NCBI RefSeq assembly: GCF_003018255.1
Contig: NZ_CP027440.1
Reading direction: 5' to 3' (one strand)
DNA: 64,000 bases
Source of the DNA: Escherichia coli
GTDB taxonomy: Bacteria > Pseudomonadota > Gammaproteobacteria > Enterobacterales > Enterobacteriaceae
In this document: one piece after another, positions 55,407 to 64,000 of the stretch
Layout: each line of letters begins with the position of its first letter
Numbering within the stretch: position 1 is the first letter of the stretch
The notes under the pieces: model-generated
Databases searched by the model: none
Told to the model about the DNA's origin: nothing
Seen by the model: the letters and a program-made list of their open reading frames with translations, nothing else
Made by a program: the position numbers and the translations under genes

Positions 55407-55889
55407 TCACGCCAACGGCACATAAATATCCGTTTCCAGTCGCCGCTCTGTCATCCCTTCGGCAAGATTGGTGTAGTGAAACAGGATCGGGGCTTTGCGC
55501 ATTTTTTCGCCGCTTGCAGGTAGCCAGTGGCGAATGATGCCCCATATCGTGTGTGAAATATCGTCCAGCTCGCCAACATGGCGGGCAACAGCATAACGCC
55601 CACCGGTAAGTTCGCCATTACTCACGCCATAACGATTATCGGGGATCGGTTCGCTAACGCTGCCGCAGATATCAAAGCGAAACGCTTCTGGTGCGGTGGT
55701 GGCTGGGTCGTCCCAGGCGACGCCAAAAGTCTGGCTTTGGTTAACAGGAGAAAGCCCCGTCTCTTTACGCCACATGATAAATTTCGCCACGCTGTAGTTG
55801 AGCAACTCAGGGCTACAGCGGTGCGGCAACATCGCCACAGGGATTGATGGGAAATCGATAATATTTACATCCAGTGTCAGGTTTGTCAT
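55407..55889 (-). CDS. ygiV: GyrI-like domain regulator, 160 aa
   Basis: Length and position; lies 108 bp from the ygiS start with no gene between. Confidence 0.88.
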   Translation of the reverse strand: MTNLTLDVNIIDFPSIPVAMLPHRCSPELLNYSVAKFIMWRKETGLSPVNQSQTFGVAWDDPATTAPEAFRFDICGSVSEPIPDNRYGVSNGELTGGRYAVARHVGELDDISHTIWGIIRHWLPASGEKMRKAPILFHYTNLAEGMTERRLETDIYVPLA

Positions 55890-56334: not shown

Positions 56335-56485
56335 GTTTATTACTCCCTTTAATGTCTGTTTCCGAGCATTTAACAAGATAGTCCTTAACAACTTCTTAAG
56401 GGAAAAAAATAAAATTTAATGCTGTACAGAGCGCGTTACAACACGGTTTACTGGCAGCAAATACGGTTATCGCAGGGATGAAAAA

Positions 56486-58491: not shown

Positions 58492-58499
58492 CTTCTCTG

Positions 58500-58536
58500 T
58501 CTATGAGAGCCGTTAAAACGACTCTCATAGACTTTA
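58500..58536. terminator. Convergent terminator hairpin between qseC and ygiZ
   Basis: Perfect 10-bp stem tctatgagag / ctctcataga followed by tttact. Confidence 0.6.
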
Positions 58537-58869
58537 CTAATAGCAAAATATAAACCGTCCCCAAAAAAGCCACCAACCACAACCCAGACAAATAACGAGC
58601 GAGAATACATATAGCCAAAACTCGAACATTTCCCGCATAAAGAGTTTTCTTAAGATAAGAATAATAAGTGGTGTCAGAAGAAAAAATGCTGCAATCATTG
58701 CTTGCAATATACGATCTTCGCCTGAAACAGAAGGTATACTGCAAATATTGTCTCCCGACTCAAGCATCCAGTCATACTTATTGAAAGCAAAAAAAGAATC
58801 TATTAACCAATAAGTAAGCATTATATATAATAGTGCTTCAAATATTGATAGTAGTTGTTTTTTTAACAT
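58537..58869 (-). CDS. ygiZ: Small inner-membrane protein (three predicted TM helices), 110 aa; candidate immunity protein
   Basis: Length and position match K-12 ygiZ; start lies 6 bp after the stop of the upstream SLT-like gene; AT-rich. Confidence 0.85.
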   Translation of the reverse strand: MLKKQLLSIFEALLYIMLTYWLIDSFFAFNKYDWMLESGDNICSIPSVSGEDRILQAMIAAFFLLTPLIILILRKLFMREMFEFWLYVFSLVICLGCGWWLFWGRFIFCY

Positions 58870-58875
58870 ATCTGA

Positions 58876-59586
58876 TTACTCATTAATCAATTTTTTGATA
58901 TGTTCTCTAATCTCTAACAACCTCATACCATAAGAGATGAATTTATAATCATCTGTATCACGCGCAGGCAAATTATTAATTAAACAAATAAAAAAGCCCA
59001 AATCTCGTTCAACACCACGATTATATCTAATACCAGCCATAATATACTGCTCATTCGTCATATACAGTGTTGCCGAAGAGGGATAATCAAAAAGGACAAG
59101 ATCTCTTAAATAAGTAGCAGCAATTTGAAAGGTAAAATCATCCTCCATTAGGCATGTCGCTAACTCTAACTGATTTCTGGTAGTTAATTCTGAAGGGTCT
59201 AGACCTAGAGTAATCGCTGCGGTTCGTATTTGTATACCCATTGAGCCAAATGATGTTTTATTTTCAGGCATATCTAACAATCCCATCATTCTTTTTGTTT
59301 CATATATCTGAAACTTATAATTTTCAGGCATACCTCCTGACTCAATCCAGGCCACGCCGCCCAGTAACTCTGGACGAATTCCAGCGGCGTATGCATGTTT
59401 AATTATTTTGTCTCTATTATATTGTACATATGCATCTTTATAAGCATTTAAATAATATACTCCTGAACGGCGACGCGAATCATTTTTTCCTAACTTCCAG
59501 AGTAAAACGTCCATTTCATCCCATTTACGGAACTTCGCTTGTGGAATTGTACAATATCTATTTTTTATAGTGAGATCGCTTTTCAT
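58876..59586 (-). CDS. Lysozyme-like / SLT-domain protein, about 236 aa; putative Hcp-associated type VI effector
   Basis: Motifs in order: catalytic-type WIESGG, then GSMGIQI, then YNRG; ATG at 59586 lies 2 nt after the hcp stop with an AAGGA ribosome-binding site inside the hcp 3' end; track start (TTG, 59613) rejected. Confidence 0.55.
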   Translation of the reverse strand: MKSDLTIKNRYCTIPQAKFRKWDEMDVLLWKLGKNDSRRRSGVYYLNAYKDAYVQYNRDKIIKHAYAAGIRPELLGGVAWIESGGMPENYKFQIYETKRMMGLLDMPENKTSFGSMGIQIRTAAITLGLDPSELTTRNQLELATCLMEDDFTFQIAATYLRDLVLFDYPSSATLYMTNEQYIMAGIRYNRGVERDLGFFICLINNLPARDTDDYKFISYGMRLLEIREHIKKLINE

Positions 59587-59588
59587 AT

Positions 59589-60068
59589 TTAAAAAATCCT
59601 TTCTTCCCAACAACTATATGATTCCGTACTCGCGATATGGTGCTTCCATGTTATATTTTTATAATTAAGAACAATGACCTCTTCCGGCTGATTACCCGCA
59701 TGTGTAATTGAGTGTGGATAACATGTCAGAATATTCGATAAATGTGCTCCTTGCAATTCAATTGTGTAAAACCTTTCAATACAACCGCCAGAATTAACTC
59801 TATAAAAATTAAATACAGCTGATAACTCTTCATTTTCAGAAAGAGCGGCATTTAATAAAGGGGAGGATTTATCTATTGGCTTGTAAAATTTTATGGGGTG
59901 ATGCACTACATTATACTCTCGACTTAAAGAATGGTCGAACTGTAAAACAAAAATTTCATCCACATGATTTATTTGATATTTATTACCAATAGATGCATAC
60001 GAACCACAACCCTCAGAGATCAAACCTTGTATTTTCCCTTTAATTGATAAGTATATGATATTTGACAT
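59589..60068 (-). CDS. hcp: Type VI secretion tube protein Hcp (Hcp1 family), 159 aa, orphan copy
   Basis: Conserved Hcp blocks (H-P-F-K-ID-SSP-L, NITW, C-terminal WEER); no other type VI genes in the window. Confidence 0.85.
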   Translation of the reverse strand: MSNIIYLSIKGKIQGLISEGCGSYASIGNKYQINHVDEIFVLQFDHSLSREYNVVHHPIKFYKPIDKSSPLLNAALSENEELSAVFNFYRVNSGGCIERFYTIELQGAHLSNILTCYPHSITHAGNQPEEVIVLNYKNITWKHHIASTESYSCWEERIF

Positions 60069-60216
60069 ATATATTCTCCATAATCATTTTTTCCGAAAAA
60101 CTCCTGTATCATTTGCATAATACATCTCTCCTGTGGGAGCTTATGGGAAGTTGATTTAAGTATTGTCATTTTCAGAAAATATTTATCCCGCATCGGTGAA
60201 TCAGAGAAAGATCAGA

Positions 60217-60263
60217 CTTTTGCTAAATTCGCAAAAGACTTTGCACATTTTGCTAATTTCACC
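60217..60263 (+). promoter_or_regulatory. mdaB upstream element: 7-bp inverted repeat plus marbox-like sequence
   Basis: Palindrome cttttgc-N7-gcaaaag, a direct repeat of ttttgctaa(a)ttc, and tttGCACattttgctaattt resembling the MarA/SoxS/Rob box; a -10-like tactat lies about 20 bp downstream. Confidence 0.35.
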
Positions 60264-60317
60264 GTACCGCTCTGTGACGTACTATAGTCGGCAAACGTCT
60301 CACCTTGAGGTTAAAAA

Positions 60318-60899
60318 ATGAGCAACATCCTGATTATCAACGGCGCGAAAAAATTCGCCCACTCCAATGGTCAACTGAACGACACCCTGACCGAAGTCGC
60401 GGATGGCACACTGCGCGACCTCGGGCATGATGTCCGCATTGTTCGCGCCGACAGCGACTACGATGTCAAAGCGGAAGTACAAAACTTTCTCTGGGCTGAT
60501 GTGGTGATCTGGCAGATGCCTGGCTGGTGGATGGGCGCGCCGTGGACAGTGAAAAAATATATTGATGATGTATTCACCGAAGGTCACGGGACTCTGTATG
60601 CCAGCGATGGTCGTACCCGCAAAGATCCATCAAAAAAATACGGTTCCGGCGGCCTGGTACAGGGCAAAAAATATATGCTTTCTCTGACCTGGAACGCACC
60701 AATGGAAGCCTTCACCGAAAAAGATCAGTTCTTCCACGGCGTTGGTGTTGACGGTGTGTACCTGCCGTTCCATAAAGCAAACCAGTTCCTTGGCATGGAA
60801 CCGCTGCCGACATTTATCGCTAATGACGTGATAAAAATGCCTGATGTTCCCCGCTATACTGAAGAATATCGCAAGCATCTTGTGGAAATTTTTGGTTAA
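60318..60899 (+). CDS. mdaB: NADPH:quinone oxidoreductase MdaB, 193 aa
   Basis: Length and sequence recognition. Confidence 0.95.
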   Translation: MSNILIINGAKKFAHSNGQLNDTLTEVADGTLRDLGHDVRIVRADSDYDVKAEVQNFLWADVVIWQMPGWWMGAPWTVKKYIDDVFTEGHGTLYASDGRTRKDPSKKYGSGGLVQGKKYMLSLTWNAPMEAFTEKDQFFHGVGVDGVYLPFHKANQFLGMEPLPTFIANDVIKMPDVPRYTEEYRKHLVEIFG

Positions 60900-60929: not shown

Positions 60930-61244
60930 ATGATTACAGTAATCGCAGAAATCCGTACTCGTCCTGGTCAACATCACCGTCAGGCAGTGTTGGATCAGTT
61001 TGCTAAAATCGTTCCAACCGTACTGAAAGAAGAAGGTTGCCACGGCTATGCGCCAATGGTGGATTGCGCTGCTGGCGTGAGTTTCCAGTCTATGGCACCG
61101 GATTCTATCGTGATGATTGAGCAGTGGGAAAGCATCGCGCATCTTGAAGCGCATCTGCAAACCCCGCACATGAAAGCATATAGCGAAGCCGTAAAAGGTG
61201 ACGTGCTGGAGATGAATATTCGTATCCTGCAGCCGGGGCTTTGA
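60930..61244 (+). CDS. ygiN: Quinol monooxygenase (ActVA-Orf6/ABM family), 104 aa
   Basis: Length and position after mdaB. Confidence 0.93.
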   Translation: MITVIAEIRTRPGQHHRQAVLDQFAKIVPTVLKEEGCHGYAPMVDCAAGVSFQSMAPDSIVMIEQWESIAHLEAHLQTPHMKAYSEAVKGDVLEMNIRILQPGL

Positions 61245-61288: not shown

Positions 61289-62176
61289 TTAGCCATTCTT
61301 TCTTCCCGTTTTCAGTCCTCGATGGAAATCGTTAATTCGCTTAATGGTTTTAACCGCACGCTGCGGCACTGCGGAAGCTACCGACCAGACAATCATTTCC
61401 AGACACAACAATACCGTACCATGTAGCGGCGTTTTCCCTTTTTCATCCCCGCGCGGAACATGAATCACGATACTGGCGTCTTTGCTAAAACGTGAATCCA
61501 GCGCGTTTGTCAGCAAAATAACAGGGATCCCTAGCCGCCTCGCCTCACGAAGCGTTGTCAGCCCTTCCCGGTGCGCTGATTTTTGCGCCATCATGATCAG
61601 AACATCGCCACGTTGAAGCGCGATCAGTTGCTCGGCAAGGCCAATACCCGTACGGTTTAGTGCCGTGGCAGGCAAACCTATGCGGTTGAATAGTCGTGCG
61701 GTATAGTCCGCCAGAATACCCGAAGCGCCAATGCCAAAAATTGCGACTTGCCGTGCCTGCACCAACAACGCTACAGCTTGCGCAAGCGCGTGGCGGTTTT
61801 CAGGCTCTGACAGGACATTACAGGTATACAAATGCCCTTCAAGAACAAAGTCGATTGCGGTGTTAACATCGCTCGTCAAGTTACTCACCGTCGTAGACAT
61901 CTTTTCGCTGGAACTAAGGGCTGGACCAAGCCACTGTTCCAGAGTGCGTTTCAGATCACGCAGCCCGGCAAACCCCAGGGCCTGTATAGCCCTGATAACT
62001 GTGGCATCGGAAGTGTTCAACGTGGCCGCAATTTCCATCGCCGTTTGCTCGAGTACCACTTCACGATGCTCATTAATGTAGCTGGCGACAACTCTTAACC
62101 CAGGCGTTAACTGACTCGCGCGAGTGCGAAAACGCTCACCAAAAATATCAACCCGCACTTTATCTTTCTGGATCAT
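61289..62176 (-). CDS. RpiR/MurR-family regulator (HTH plus SIS domain), 295 aa
   Basis: N-terminal HTH region and C-terminal SIS-like region; start overlaps stop of the upstream binding-protein gene (ATGA). Confidence 0.75.
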   Translation of the reverse strand: MIQKDKVRVDIFGERFRTRASQLTPGLRVVASYINEHREVVLEQTAMEIAATLNTSDATVIRAIQALGFAGLRDLKRTLEQWLGPALSSSEKMSTTVSNLTSDVNTAIDFVLEGHLYTCNVLSEPENRHALAQAVALLVQARQVAIFGIGASGILADYTARLFNRIGLPATALNRTGIGLAEQLIALQRGDVLIMMAQKSAHREGLTTLREARRLGIPVILLTNALDSRFSKDASIVIHVPRGDEKGKTPLHGTVLLCLEMIVWSVASAVPQRAVKTIKRINDFHRGLKTGRKNG

Positions 62177-63120
62177 TTAGCCTCCGGTAGAGGTCGCCCT
62201 GCAATTTGTGATTGTATCTGCGCAGCCATCAGCCCCAGAGATGCAAAGGAGTTAGAAATTGCCTCTTCACGAGAAATCAGCACATAACGCCCGGAACGAC
62301 AGGCAGTCAGAAACTGACACCATCCCGGCATGACTTTTTCCATTGCTGCCAGCTCATCCTGAGGTTTACCACCGGTGTCACCGCGCCAGGTTGCAAAAAC
62401 AAAATCGGCATCCAGTTCAGGTAAACGCTCCGCGCTCACATCCATTCGCCCACCTTCAGGAATGCTCTCAATCAGCGGCGGAAAACGAAAACCCGCATCG
62501 CGTAATACCCGCCCCAGCGAATGATAGCTATGCATCACATTAATTTTTCCCTGGTTTGCCTGAATCACCGATACCGTTATTTTTTGGCTGTCCAGCGTCG
62601 CCTTCAGCGCATTGATTTGTGCCTGATAGCGGCGTTCAAGTATCGCCAGCTGCGACTGCGTTCCTGTAAGTCCTGCCAGCTTGCGATAGATTTCTGGCGC
62701 ACCCCCTTTGAGATGATCAATGCTCACCGTGGGCGCAATTTTTTCAAGTTGTTCAATGGGCGTATTACGGGTCGGTTCTGTGATGATCAGGTCAGGCTTT
62801 GCCGCCACAATCGCTTCAATATCAATATCAGCGGTACCAATAAAGGCGATCGATGAATTATCAAAGTCGACACCTGTCAATAACGCGCCAGATCGAATGA
62901 AATGGCTACCGTCAGGCCGAGTTCGCCCGTGGCTGGCGACAGGAGGTACACCGAGCTCAATCAGAGGAATAGTGATATCAAGATCGTGTAAAGAGACAAT
63001 TCTCTTTGGATGAGCAGGAACAGTGACTTTGCGCCCTAAATCATCAGTAAATACCTGAACAGGTTCTGTTGCACGGGAAAAAAATGACAACAGTATCAGC
63101 AGAGAAAAAAATAAACGCAT
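62173..63120 (-). CDS. ABC-transporter periplasmic substrate-binding protein (siderophore/cobalamin/heme class), about 315 aa
   Basis: Signal peptide (MRLFFSLLILLSFFSRA) then FecB/BtuF-like sequence; track ORF extends 21 codons further upstream. Confidence 0.7.
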   Translation of the reverse strand: MRLFFSLLILLSFFSRATEPVQVFTDDLGRKVTVPAHPKRIVSLHDLDITIPLIELGVPPVASHGRTRPDGSHFIRSGALLTGVDFDNSSIAFIGTADIDIEAIVAAKPDLIITEPTRNTPIEQLEKIAPTVSIDHLKGGAPEIYRKLAGLTGTQSQLAILERRYQAQINALKATLDSQKITVSVIQANQGKINVMHSYHSLGRVLRDAGFRFPPLIESIPEGGRMDVSAERLPELDADFVFATWRGDTGGKPQDELAAMEKVMPGWCQFLTACRSGRYVLISREEAISNSFASLGLMAAQIQSQIAGRPLPEAK

Positions 63121-63130
63121 ATAACTCCCG

Positions 63131-64000
63131 TTAAAAACTGTTCCTGCGCTGCCAGAGCAGTAGCAAAAAAAATGGTCCACCAATCAGTGAGATAATGATT
63201 CCGGCAGGCAGTTGCAAAGGCAAAAAAGCCAAACGACCAATGCTATCCGCCAGAATAACTAACAACGCCCCCGATACCGCGCTCCCCAGCAGTAATGTCG
63301 TCTGCCCGCCACGTAGAATAAAACGTGATATATGGGGTGCTATCAATCCGACAAAACCGATGTTACCAACACACGAAACGCAGACGGCTGTCAGGATTAT
63401 TGGTGCGGCGACACGTAACAACGCCAGACGAGAACTATTCACCCCTAACCCGGTTGCAACCTGATGACCAAGCAGAGCGATATCCGCCGTCCTGGCGGTG
63501 AACAGCAATAAAAGAGCGGCTGGCAACATCCAACAGGCTGAAATACCGACTAACATCCAGTTAGCTGCATGCAGGCTTCCCGATAACCACATCAATGCAG
63601 TTTGTACATCTCGAACATCTGCAGTGGTCATAAATACACCGATACCGGCGGCGAAAAACCAGGAAACACCAATACCAATCAGAACAAATCGCGGGCGGGA
63701 AATATCGCGCGCACAAAAAATCACGATTAAAGCCACCAACAAGCCACCAGCAAGACCAGCCACTGGACGCCAGAACATTCCCAGCATTGGAAACTGGAAA
63801 ATCAGCCACAGCACCGCCACGCTACATCCTTCTTTGACGCCGATTAAACCAGGATCGGCAAGGCCGTTACGCGCAATGGATTGCATCGCGGCCCCCGCCA
63901 TACCTAACATGGCTCCGCATAGCAATGCCATGATGACTCTCGGCAAGCGAATATCCTGCACAATATAACGTGCGTCTGTGCTTACGTTTTCTGGAGCAAA
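63131..64000 (-). CDS. FecCD-family ABC permease, N-terminus beyond the window edge
   Basis: Polytopic membrane ORF; coding frame continues to position 64000. Confidence 0.7.
   Translation of the reverse strand, partial: FAPENVSTDARYIVQDIRLPRVIMALLCGAMLGMAGAAMQSIARNGLADPGLIGVKEGCSVAVLWLIFQFPMLGMFWRPVAGLAGGLLVALIVIFCARDISRPRFVLIGIGVSWFFAAGIGVFMTTADVRDVQTALMWLSGSLHAANWMLVGISACWMLPAALLLLFTARTADIALLGHQVATGLGVNSSRLALLRVAAPIILTAVCVSCVGNIGFVGLIAPHISRFILRGGQTTLLLGSAVSGALLVILADSIGRLAFLPLQLPAGIIISLIGGPFFLLLLWQRRNSF

Follow-up and report, generated by a model that had tools for sequence, protein, structure and literature searches.

Candidate marbox and a separately conserved dyad upstream of the mdaB–ygiN operon in Escherichia coli

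Upstream of mdaB in Escherichia coli, a 47-bp segment carries a palindrome followed by a sequence that resembles the binding site (marbox) of MarA, SoxS and Rob, close to an island that encodes hcp. Does this segment hold the site through which these regulators activate mdaB, and how do the palindrome and the island relate to it? We analyzed the segment (positions 60217–60263) within a 64,000-nt stretch of contig NZ_CP027440.1, hereafter referred to as the window. The MdaB and YgiN proteins detoxify quinones; mdaB originally came to light as a modulator of drug activity.

Position of the element relative to the hcp island

The downstream gene, named as mdaB in the initial annotation, is indeed this gene: the 193-aa open reading frame at 60318–60899 (plus strand, ATG at 60318) matches the Pfam family Flavodoxin_2 and is annotated as the NADPH:quinone oxidoreductase MdaB in the RefSeq record of an identical genome. 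It is followed on the same strand by ygiN (60930–61244), which encodes a quinol monooxygenase with an ABM domain; in Salmonella, ygiN and mdaB share one transcript (PMC2653508). Alignment with the K-12 mdaB promoter, the check proposed along with the initial annotation, gave complete agreement, the 47 bp of 60217–60263 being 100% identical to K-12 and the entire stretch from the palindrome to the ATG likewise. This palindrome-to-ATG segment (107 bp) was found in 5424 of 5426 complete E. coli genomes, with at least 99% identity in 5098; the element at 60217–60263 is therefore part of the core genome, with the hcp island inserted upstream of and outside it. A 49-bp block of the mdaB upstream region bears no RefSeq feature and is single copy in E. 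coli, which rules out a paralogous block elsewhere. The locus is the already known mdaB promoter of K-12, and in this respect little is new.

What varies is the DNA on the left-hand side. In O157:H7, the qseC stop codon lies 5 bp before AGACTTTTGC, and K-12 carries a segment of ~590 bp with ygiZ, the latter located 318 bp upstream. In the window, a lineage-specific insertion on the minus strand (58537–60213) occupies the space between the qseC stop (58491) and the dyad formed by the palindrome. It contains ygiZ (DUF2645), a 236-aa gene, hcp and ~73 bp common to K-12 (60141–60213); the combination of ygiZ, the 236-aa gene and hcp is found in the same place in 1260 of the 5426 complete genomes searched. 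The 236-aa gene, which lies beside hcp, gave no Pfam or PDB match.

The initial annotation had placed the element directly abutting the hcp island. In O157:H7 and in other genera, homology begins at 60214, 3 bp left of the palindrome, and the description holds for this ancestral arrangement. It does not hold relative to K-12, to which homology begins at ~60141–60159, i.e., 60–75 bp left of the palindrome. The hcp insertion lies wholly upstream of the mdaB control module, which stays intact. The 3′ end of ygiZ (58528–58548) resembles the palindrome, but this candidate target-site duplication was not significant (p about 0.07) and was discarded.

A candidate marbox and the predicted core promoter

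The 20-mer at 60240–60259 on the plus strand (TTTGCACATTTTGCTAATTT) is a candidate site for MarA, SoxS or Rob (or RamA), as judged by consensus and matrix matches. The initial annotation had described the sequence here, tttGCACattttGCTAAttt, as matching most positions of the marbox consensus. Compared with AYNGCACNNWNNRYYAAAYN, 12 of the 14 specified positions agree, the two mismatches falling at positions 1 and 18, and only 10 matches with two or fewer mismatches to this consensus occur in the 64-kb window when both strands are counted. The 15-mer core (GCACATTTTGCTAAT, 60243–60257, forward orientation) deviates at one position from the pattern gcannwwntgnnaaa. Using a weight matrix derived from 32 MarA ChIP-seq sites that bind MarA in vitro (Sharma et al, 2017; PMC5684230, Table 1), we obtained a score of 14.05 bits for this core, which ranks first among 127,972 window positions and lies in the middle of the scores given by the 32 real sites. 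The marbox match exceeds chance. A 2025 genome-wide computational screen from the Grainger lab (PMC12052159, S2 table) also predicts this 15-mer as an mdaB marbox, with its centre at U00096.2 3170484. Mapped via the mdaB ATG (3172530 in NC_000913.3), this centre corresponds to window position 60250. We take the coordinate shift between the U00096.2 and NC_000913.3 versions of K-12 to be 1978 bp.

For comparison across genera, we aligned the upstream regions of the mdaB loci of 80 Enterobacteriaceae species and made a further alignment of 54 species; the genera sampled include Escherichia, Citrobacter, Salmonella, Klebsiella, Enterobacter, Kluyvera, Leclercia, Raoultella and Kosakonia. The −10-like hexamer noted initially, TACTAT at 60280–60285 (plus strand), has a fixed position in these alignments: every aligned species has TAnnAT at the same distance from the marbox, with TAAAAT, TAGAAT, TAACAT, TATCAT and TATTAT as variants in other genera. 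Because both TAnnAT and its position are conserved across genera, we identify TACTAT as the probable genuine −10 hexamer and predict a plus-strand transcription start near 60292 (60291–60293, 6–8 nt past the −10). A weak −35-like hexamer read from the sequence, TTCACC (4/6 matches; 60258–60263, plus strand), would be separated from the −10 by 16 bp and shares 2 bp with the 3′ end of the marbox, in agreement with the overlap with a −35 region proposed at the outset. This core promoter has 8 of 12 matches, lies below the threshold of our promoter scan and was not called, which, together with the weak −35, is consistent with an activator-dependent promoter. From the predicted start, the marbox centre (60250) would be at about −42 to −43 and the dyad centre (60227) at about −65. 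The forward-oriented marbox precedes the −10 by 20 bp, and the 80 species all keep the −10 in this position.

Within the marbox, nearly all 54 aligned species share an unchanged GCAC and spacer. Position 13 of the 15-mer, an A here, is C in Klebsiella, Enterobacter and Raoultella, or C or T if Kluyvera is included. This change lowers the matrix score from 13.9 to 8.2 bits or lower, and none of the 32 ChIP-seq sites has C at this position.

Another reading of the marbox-like sequence takes it as mainly a core-promoter element. It contains an extended −10-like motif, TGcTAATTT (60251–60259, plus strand), which could drive a start at 60266; binding of a MarA-family protein would then occlude that promoter or switch transcription to the downstream one. 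A reported start, U00096.2 3170500 (window 60266), lies 7 nt past TAATTT, itself preceded by TGc, and PMC12052159 classes the mdaB site among marboxes that overlap the core promoter. The mlaFEDCB region provides a precedent, with mlaP1 overlapping both the marbox and mlaP2 and with removal of mlaP1 raising activation; mdaB likewise has a possible second promoter over its marbox. Unlike in mlaFEDCB, the overlapping mdaB promoter derives from one high-throughput start coordinate and is not conserved across genera. The key A at position 2 of the hexamer is conserved only in Escherichia, Citrobacter, Salmonella and Leclercia and is replaced by C or T in Klebsiella, Enterobacter and Kluyvera, whereas the downstream TAnnAT is universal.

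PMC12052159 S2 gives two mdaB starts, U00096.2 3170452 and 3170500, each nearest to a motif, and these map to window positions 60218 and 60266, not to ~60292. They derive from a very permissive list of 28,107 sites, from which the table reports only the motif-nearest start. In the same table, the distance printed for mdaB (−26) conflicts with the printed coordinates (−16). In Salmonella, primer extension did not find the mdaB start (PMC2653508). We consider it distinctly improbable that the marbox-like sequence functions mainly as a core-promoter element; TGcTAATTT is possibly a minor overlapping promoter.

The upstream dyad and its candidate binding proteins

The inverted repeat is perfect over 7 bp, as first stated: CTTTTGC (60217–60223), the spacer TAAATTC and GCAAAAG (60231–60237) together form CTTTTGC-N7-GCAAAAG, which extends imperfectly to 13-nt arms (60214–60226 and 60228–60240; 85% complementary). 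Chance is enough to account for this palindrome taken alone. There are 76 perfect 7-bp inverted repeats with spacers of 3–10 nt in the window (vs 31 ± 6 in shuffles), 15 of them with a 7-nt spacer, and TTGC-N7-GCAA occurs three times, which equals the chance expectation.

The alignments of 80 and 54 species delimit a conserved core dyad, TTGC-N7-GCAA (60220–60234, centred at 60227), in which TTGC and GCAA are invariant or nearly so, and the 7-nt spacer is free in sequence and constant in length. Only Escherichia and Salmonella show the repeat perfect over 7 bp, a form that two left-arm substitutions would have generated there; elsewhere the left arm is ATTATTGC, and the third (central) stem pair, T60219–A60235, is broken in 48 of the 54 species. 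The palindrome is not part of the marbox, being the lineage-sharpened form of a separately conserved dyad. Across genera, the layout follows the consensus ATTATTGC-N7-GCAAAAGACTTTGCACATTTTGCT[A/C/T]ATTT, then a variable G+C-rich stretch of fixed length and then TAnnAT, and nearly all species have TTTGCAC at 78 bp from the ATG. A near-invariant block, GCAAAAGACTTTGCACATTTTGC (60231–60253, plus strand), comprises the right arm of the dyad and the first two-thirds of the marbox. Its extent does not coincide with that of the marbox, implying that other constraints must act on the block.

In 76 of the 80 species, qseC ends 5–14 nt before the dyad, and in the four species where qseC is not the immediate upstream neighbour, the dyad is likewise found with mdaB. 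Rearranged loci that keep the dyad with mdaB comprise the K-12 type, the B2 type, E. whittamii, L074, C. werkmanii L019 and Pseudocitrobacter L078. Because the dyad accompanies mdaB in every rearranged locus, we regard it as the upstream boundary of the mdaB control module.

The short distance from the qseC stop to TTGC in these 76 species would also suit an RNA hairpin, serving either as an intrinsic terminator or 3′-end stabilizer of qseBC or as a 5′ stem-loop of an mdaB transcript initiated upstream. In Salmonella, preB (qseC) and mdaB are separately transcribed despite a gap of 106 bp (PMC2653508). Furthermore, a scan marks a terminator-like hairpin on the minus strand, G–C pairs lengthen the stem inward in some species, and the K-12 start reported at window position 60218 is the second base of the stem. 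The stem has 7 bp with three G–C pairs and a plus-strand tail of ACTTTGCAC; it folds at −7.1 kcal/mol here, but across species it is weak (mean −4.2 kcal/mol, most at about −3), has 4 bp in most species and has no plus-strand T-run. In the window, no gene ends at the hairpin, as transcription of hcp and ygiZ points away from it, and qseC has an 11-bp hairpin of its own at 58499–58532. On these grounds we rejected an intrinsic terminator, which the scan had flagged on the minus strand only.

A conserved structured RNA was also rejected. Besides the broken central pair, stem covariation gives a marginal signal (the observed score is reached in 9 of 500 shuffles), RNAalifold returned only an alternative helix (−3.7 kcal/mol) that is invariant and lacks covariation, and the Rfam search of the element gave no match. 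A fixed 7-nt loop would be unusual for a structure selected only for pairing. A role of the palindrome as an RNA hairpin appears improbable to us, and a DNA operator is likelier than a terminator because the hairpin is weak. A constant distance between two invariant 4-bp half-sites, combined with a spacer of free sequence, is the signature of a DNA-binding protein that acts as a dimer, and TTGC-N7-GCAA most likely acts as a double-stranded DNA operator of such a protein, not as an RNA hairpin. We know of no protein that binds TTGC-N7-GCAA.

Proteins of the MarA family themselves could occupy the palindrome if it were an auxiliary second marbox, read forward as GC-N7-GCAAAA (centre at about −63) or as the reverse complement (about −67). 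It would then aid the −42 site, as in two-marbox promoters or from class I or class I* positions. A sequence inside the palindrome, GCTAAATTCGCAAAA, is listed as a predicted mdaB marbox with two mismatches (PMC12052159, S2), and the palindrome and the marbox have TTTGC-N7-GC.AA in common, at a spacing of 21 bp. Scored as a forward marbox, the palindrome averages 8.9 bits over 54 species, compared with 5.4 ± 4.3 bits with a random spacer, and reaches 14–16 bits in some Enterobacter, Lelliottia and E. coli strains. In the window, however, its score of 9.5 bits ranks only about 40th among 127,972 positions, and the range of −1.2 to 15.9 bits between species indicates that the score is not maintained by selection. 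Positions 3–4 (the A and C of GCAC) vary freely between species, whereas 26 of the 32 real sites have A at position 3, and nothing in a marbox corresponds to the conserved left flank, ATTA/TTGC. An auxiliary marbox therefore seems rather unlikely, and we favour a separate operator.

QseB (PreA) is another protein that might bind the palindrome or the conserved block directly and activate mdaB–ygiN, as proposed for Salmonella. Overexpression of PreA in that species raised mdaB 7-fold by microarray and 32-fold by qRT-PCR, and direct binding was hypothesized (PMC2653508); the element, moreover, comes directly after qseC. The PreA effect on mdaB could nevertheless be indirect. A direct repeat of the QseB/PmrA type, CTTAAC-N5-CTTAAG, is present in the ygiW–qseB intergenic region (56384–56400), whereas no QseB/PmrA box (YTTAAK-N5-YTTAAK) was found within 3.6 kb of mdaB. 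OmpR-family regulators bind direct repeats, and an inverted repeat is ill-suited to a member of this family. Direct binding of QseB at this element is, in our assessment, highly improbable.

The dyad can also be written in the form recognized by LysR-type regulators. TGC-N7-GCA constitutes a T-N11-A dyad centred at about −65, and a degenerate copy, TTGC-N7-GCTA, lies 21 bp downstream, overlapping the −35 region. By geometry only, this layout is similar to that of LysR-type sites, with a T-N11-A recognition site near −65 and an activation site near −35 (PMC11739112). No cognate LysR-type gene was found among the neighbours qseC, ygiZ and hcp. YhaJ was considered as a binder of the dyad and rejected, given that its proposed motif (TCAAATTTTTTGAAGA) differs and that the literature does not mention YhaJ and mdaB together. 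We tentatively suggest, as a possibility well short of an even chance, that the dyad, which keeps its place at about −65 in every Enterobacteriaceae genus examined, and the linked invariant block form the operator of a dimeric or tetrameric regulator, perhaps of the LysR type with sites 21 bp apart, which would control MdaB/YgiN independently of or jointly with MarA/SoxS/Rob. If true, such a regulator would explain conservation that extends 12 bp beyond the marbox and across its normally free spacer. A σ54 promoter was discarded as well, the spacing of TTGCAC-N3-TTGC being 2 nt too short as read from the sequence; the published σ54 site of the region lies inside qseC, 964 bp upstream of mdaB.

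The regulon literature, the proposed module and known promoters

The initial annotation had assigned mdaB to the mar/sox regulon, and published work places it in the mar regulon. MdaB is called a mar regulon member in PMC2989944, which cites Martin & Rosner (2002) and Barbosa & Levy (2002), and mdaB is among the MarA-activated genes in a 2020 bioRxiv preprint. MdaB was up 8.4-fold with vanillin, and mdaB was down 3.2-fold in a Salmonella ramA mutant (PMC3139621). Site and peak lists speak against strong occupancy, as mdaB is absent from the EcoCyc high-quality MarA sites tabulated in PMC12052159, from the 33 MarA ChIP-seq peaks of E. coli H10407 (PMC5684230) and from the Salmonella MarA, SoxS, Rob and RamA ChIP-seq peaks, which include none between yggJ and nudF<>tolC. 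This absence from the ChIP sets is weak evidence, because they also miss fumC, zwf and inaA, accepted targets that are marked 'No' for ChIP-seq in the PMC12052159 table. In the literature accessible to us, which did not include Martin & Rosner (2002), we found no footprint, mutational study or experimental mapping of an mdaB marbox. The proposal of a probable activator site has the first matrix rank, the class II geometry and the regulon literature in its favour and the absence of mdaB from three MarA site sets against it. Among candidates for this site, the marbox has the best support when sequence, position, conservation and the regulon literature are considered together.

We estimate at about two in three the probability that 60214–60317 constitutes a compact conserved regulatory module of the mdaB–ygiN operon, composed of a core promoter, a marbox and a separate upstream palindrome. 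The sequence and its conservation suggest a weak σ70 core promoter made up of TTCACC, a 16-bp spacer and TACTAT, with a start near 60292. The core at 60243–60257 would be bound by one MarA, SoxS or Rob monomer (or, in other genera, RamA), which would recruit RNA polymerase in a class II manner and thereby raise mdaB–ygiN expression under salicylate, redox-cycling or drug stress; the sequence, position and conservation of the site and the regulon literature point to such binding and activation. The palindrome would act as a separate element, its core at about −65 providing an operator for a dimeric protein.

The wiring of this operon into the mar/sox/rob network bears on models of intrinsic drug and oxidant tolerance, although its practical value is modest. 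What our analysis adds is a footprint across genera, which pins down the likely activator site and core promoter, and a second conserved dyad at about −65. Regulation of mdaB in strains that carry the hcp island (B2-type) should match that of K-12, because the hcp insertion left the mdaB control region untouched. Compared with the K-12 mdaB–ygiN promoter (b3028–b3029), the downstream genes and the predicted marbox (GCACATTTTGCTAAT) are the same, and only the upstream context differs.

The mdaB site has a core similar to those of ypeC (gcattttttgctaaa) and marRAB (ccacgttttgctaaa), two high-affinity ChIP-seq sites, except that its last base is T instead of A. In class II promoters, the marbox is usually 18–19 bp from the −10. 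At micF, an accepted class II promoter, GCAC starts 35 bp before the −10 hexamer TAGAAT and the marbox-to-(−10) distance is 18 bp, compared with 37 and 20 bp at mdaB; the micF marbox is centred at −41 from the annotated RNA 5′ end, and that of mdaB would be centred at about −42. At xseA, a −36C change inactivates the marbox, which hence ends near −36. Class II sites are defined in PMC12052159 as forward sites centred between −36 and −55. Measured from the predicted start, the mdaB marbox fits class II geometry at the long end of the range, and mdaB, like micF and xseA, would have a forward marbox that adjoins or overlaps a weak −35 and is centred near −41 to −43.

The hcp unit and the hairpin after qseC

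Between qseC and the dyad upstream of mdaB (60217-60237), the window carries a compact unit on the minus strand (58537-60068) that comprises hcp, a 236-aa gene and ygiZ. The hcp product (159 aa) belongs to T6SS_HCP and ygiZ encodes a DUF2645 membrane protein, while searches of Pfam and PDB with the 236-aa product returned no match. Citrobacter werkmanii harbors both hcp and the 236-aa gene at the equivalent position between qseC and the mdaB dyad (L019:62-1254), this being the locus that extends far enough for comparison of the 236-aa gene; a Pseudocitrobacter genome has hcp at the equivalent position (L078:667-1161), in a retrieved locus that ends short of the 236-aa gene position. Of this unit, K-12 retains ygiZ alone. 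The gene layout suggests a putative Hcp-effector-immunity module, and suggests that K-12 ygiZ is a putative orphan immunity gene.

An 11-bp perfect inverted repeat with a 12-nt loop (GTCTATGAGAG ... CTCTCATAGAC, 58499-58532) starts 8 nt past the qseC stop codon, with the ygiZ stop codon adjoining its other side. This repeat is probably a bidirectional terminator brought in by the ygiZ insertion, and any role of the mdaB palindrome in terminating qseC is now probably filled by it.

Start sites and the marbox

In a published set of 28,107 start sites, two from K-12 correspond to window position 60218, which is base 2 of the palindrome, and to 60266, 7 nt 3' of the extended -10-like TGcTAATTT within the marbox (60240-60259); the source table (PMC12052159, S2) is inconsistent, printing a distance of -26 where its printed coordinates give -16. 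In E. coli EC05 (NZ_CM169495.1), an IS5-like element of the ISKpn26 family (L004:249-1432) splits the marbox core at the equivalent of window ~60253, with GCACATTTT on one side and the GCTAAT-side sequence on the other, and mdaB is annotated as frameshifted. EC05 is a natural knock-out of the marbox site and the mdaB gene alike.

A QseB-type repeat and ygiV

The sole PmrA/QseB-type direct repeat matched near the mdaB locus, CTTAAC-AACTT-CTTAAG (56384-56400), lies in the ygiW-qseB intergenic region. In Salmonella, PreA (the QseB of that genus) induces the ygiV counterpart STM3175 605-fold; STM3175 has been described as a regulator of the AraC family. If Rob-like, STM3175 could be a candidate mediator of the PreA effect on mdaB, acting via the marbox. 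The ygiV homologue in the window (55407-55889, minus strand) encodes 160 aa, the same short length as in K-12.

The segment downstream of ygiN

On the 3' side of ygiN, genes for a regulator of the MurR/RpiR family and for an iron-siderophore ABC transporter (61289-63961, minus strand) form a second variable segment bordering the mdaB-ygiN pair. The same regulator and transporter follow ygiN in O157:H7, whereas in K-12 ygiN is followed directly by parE.
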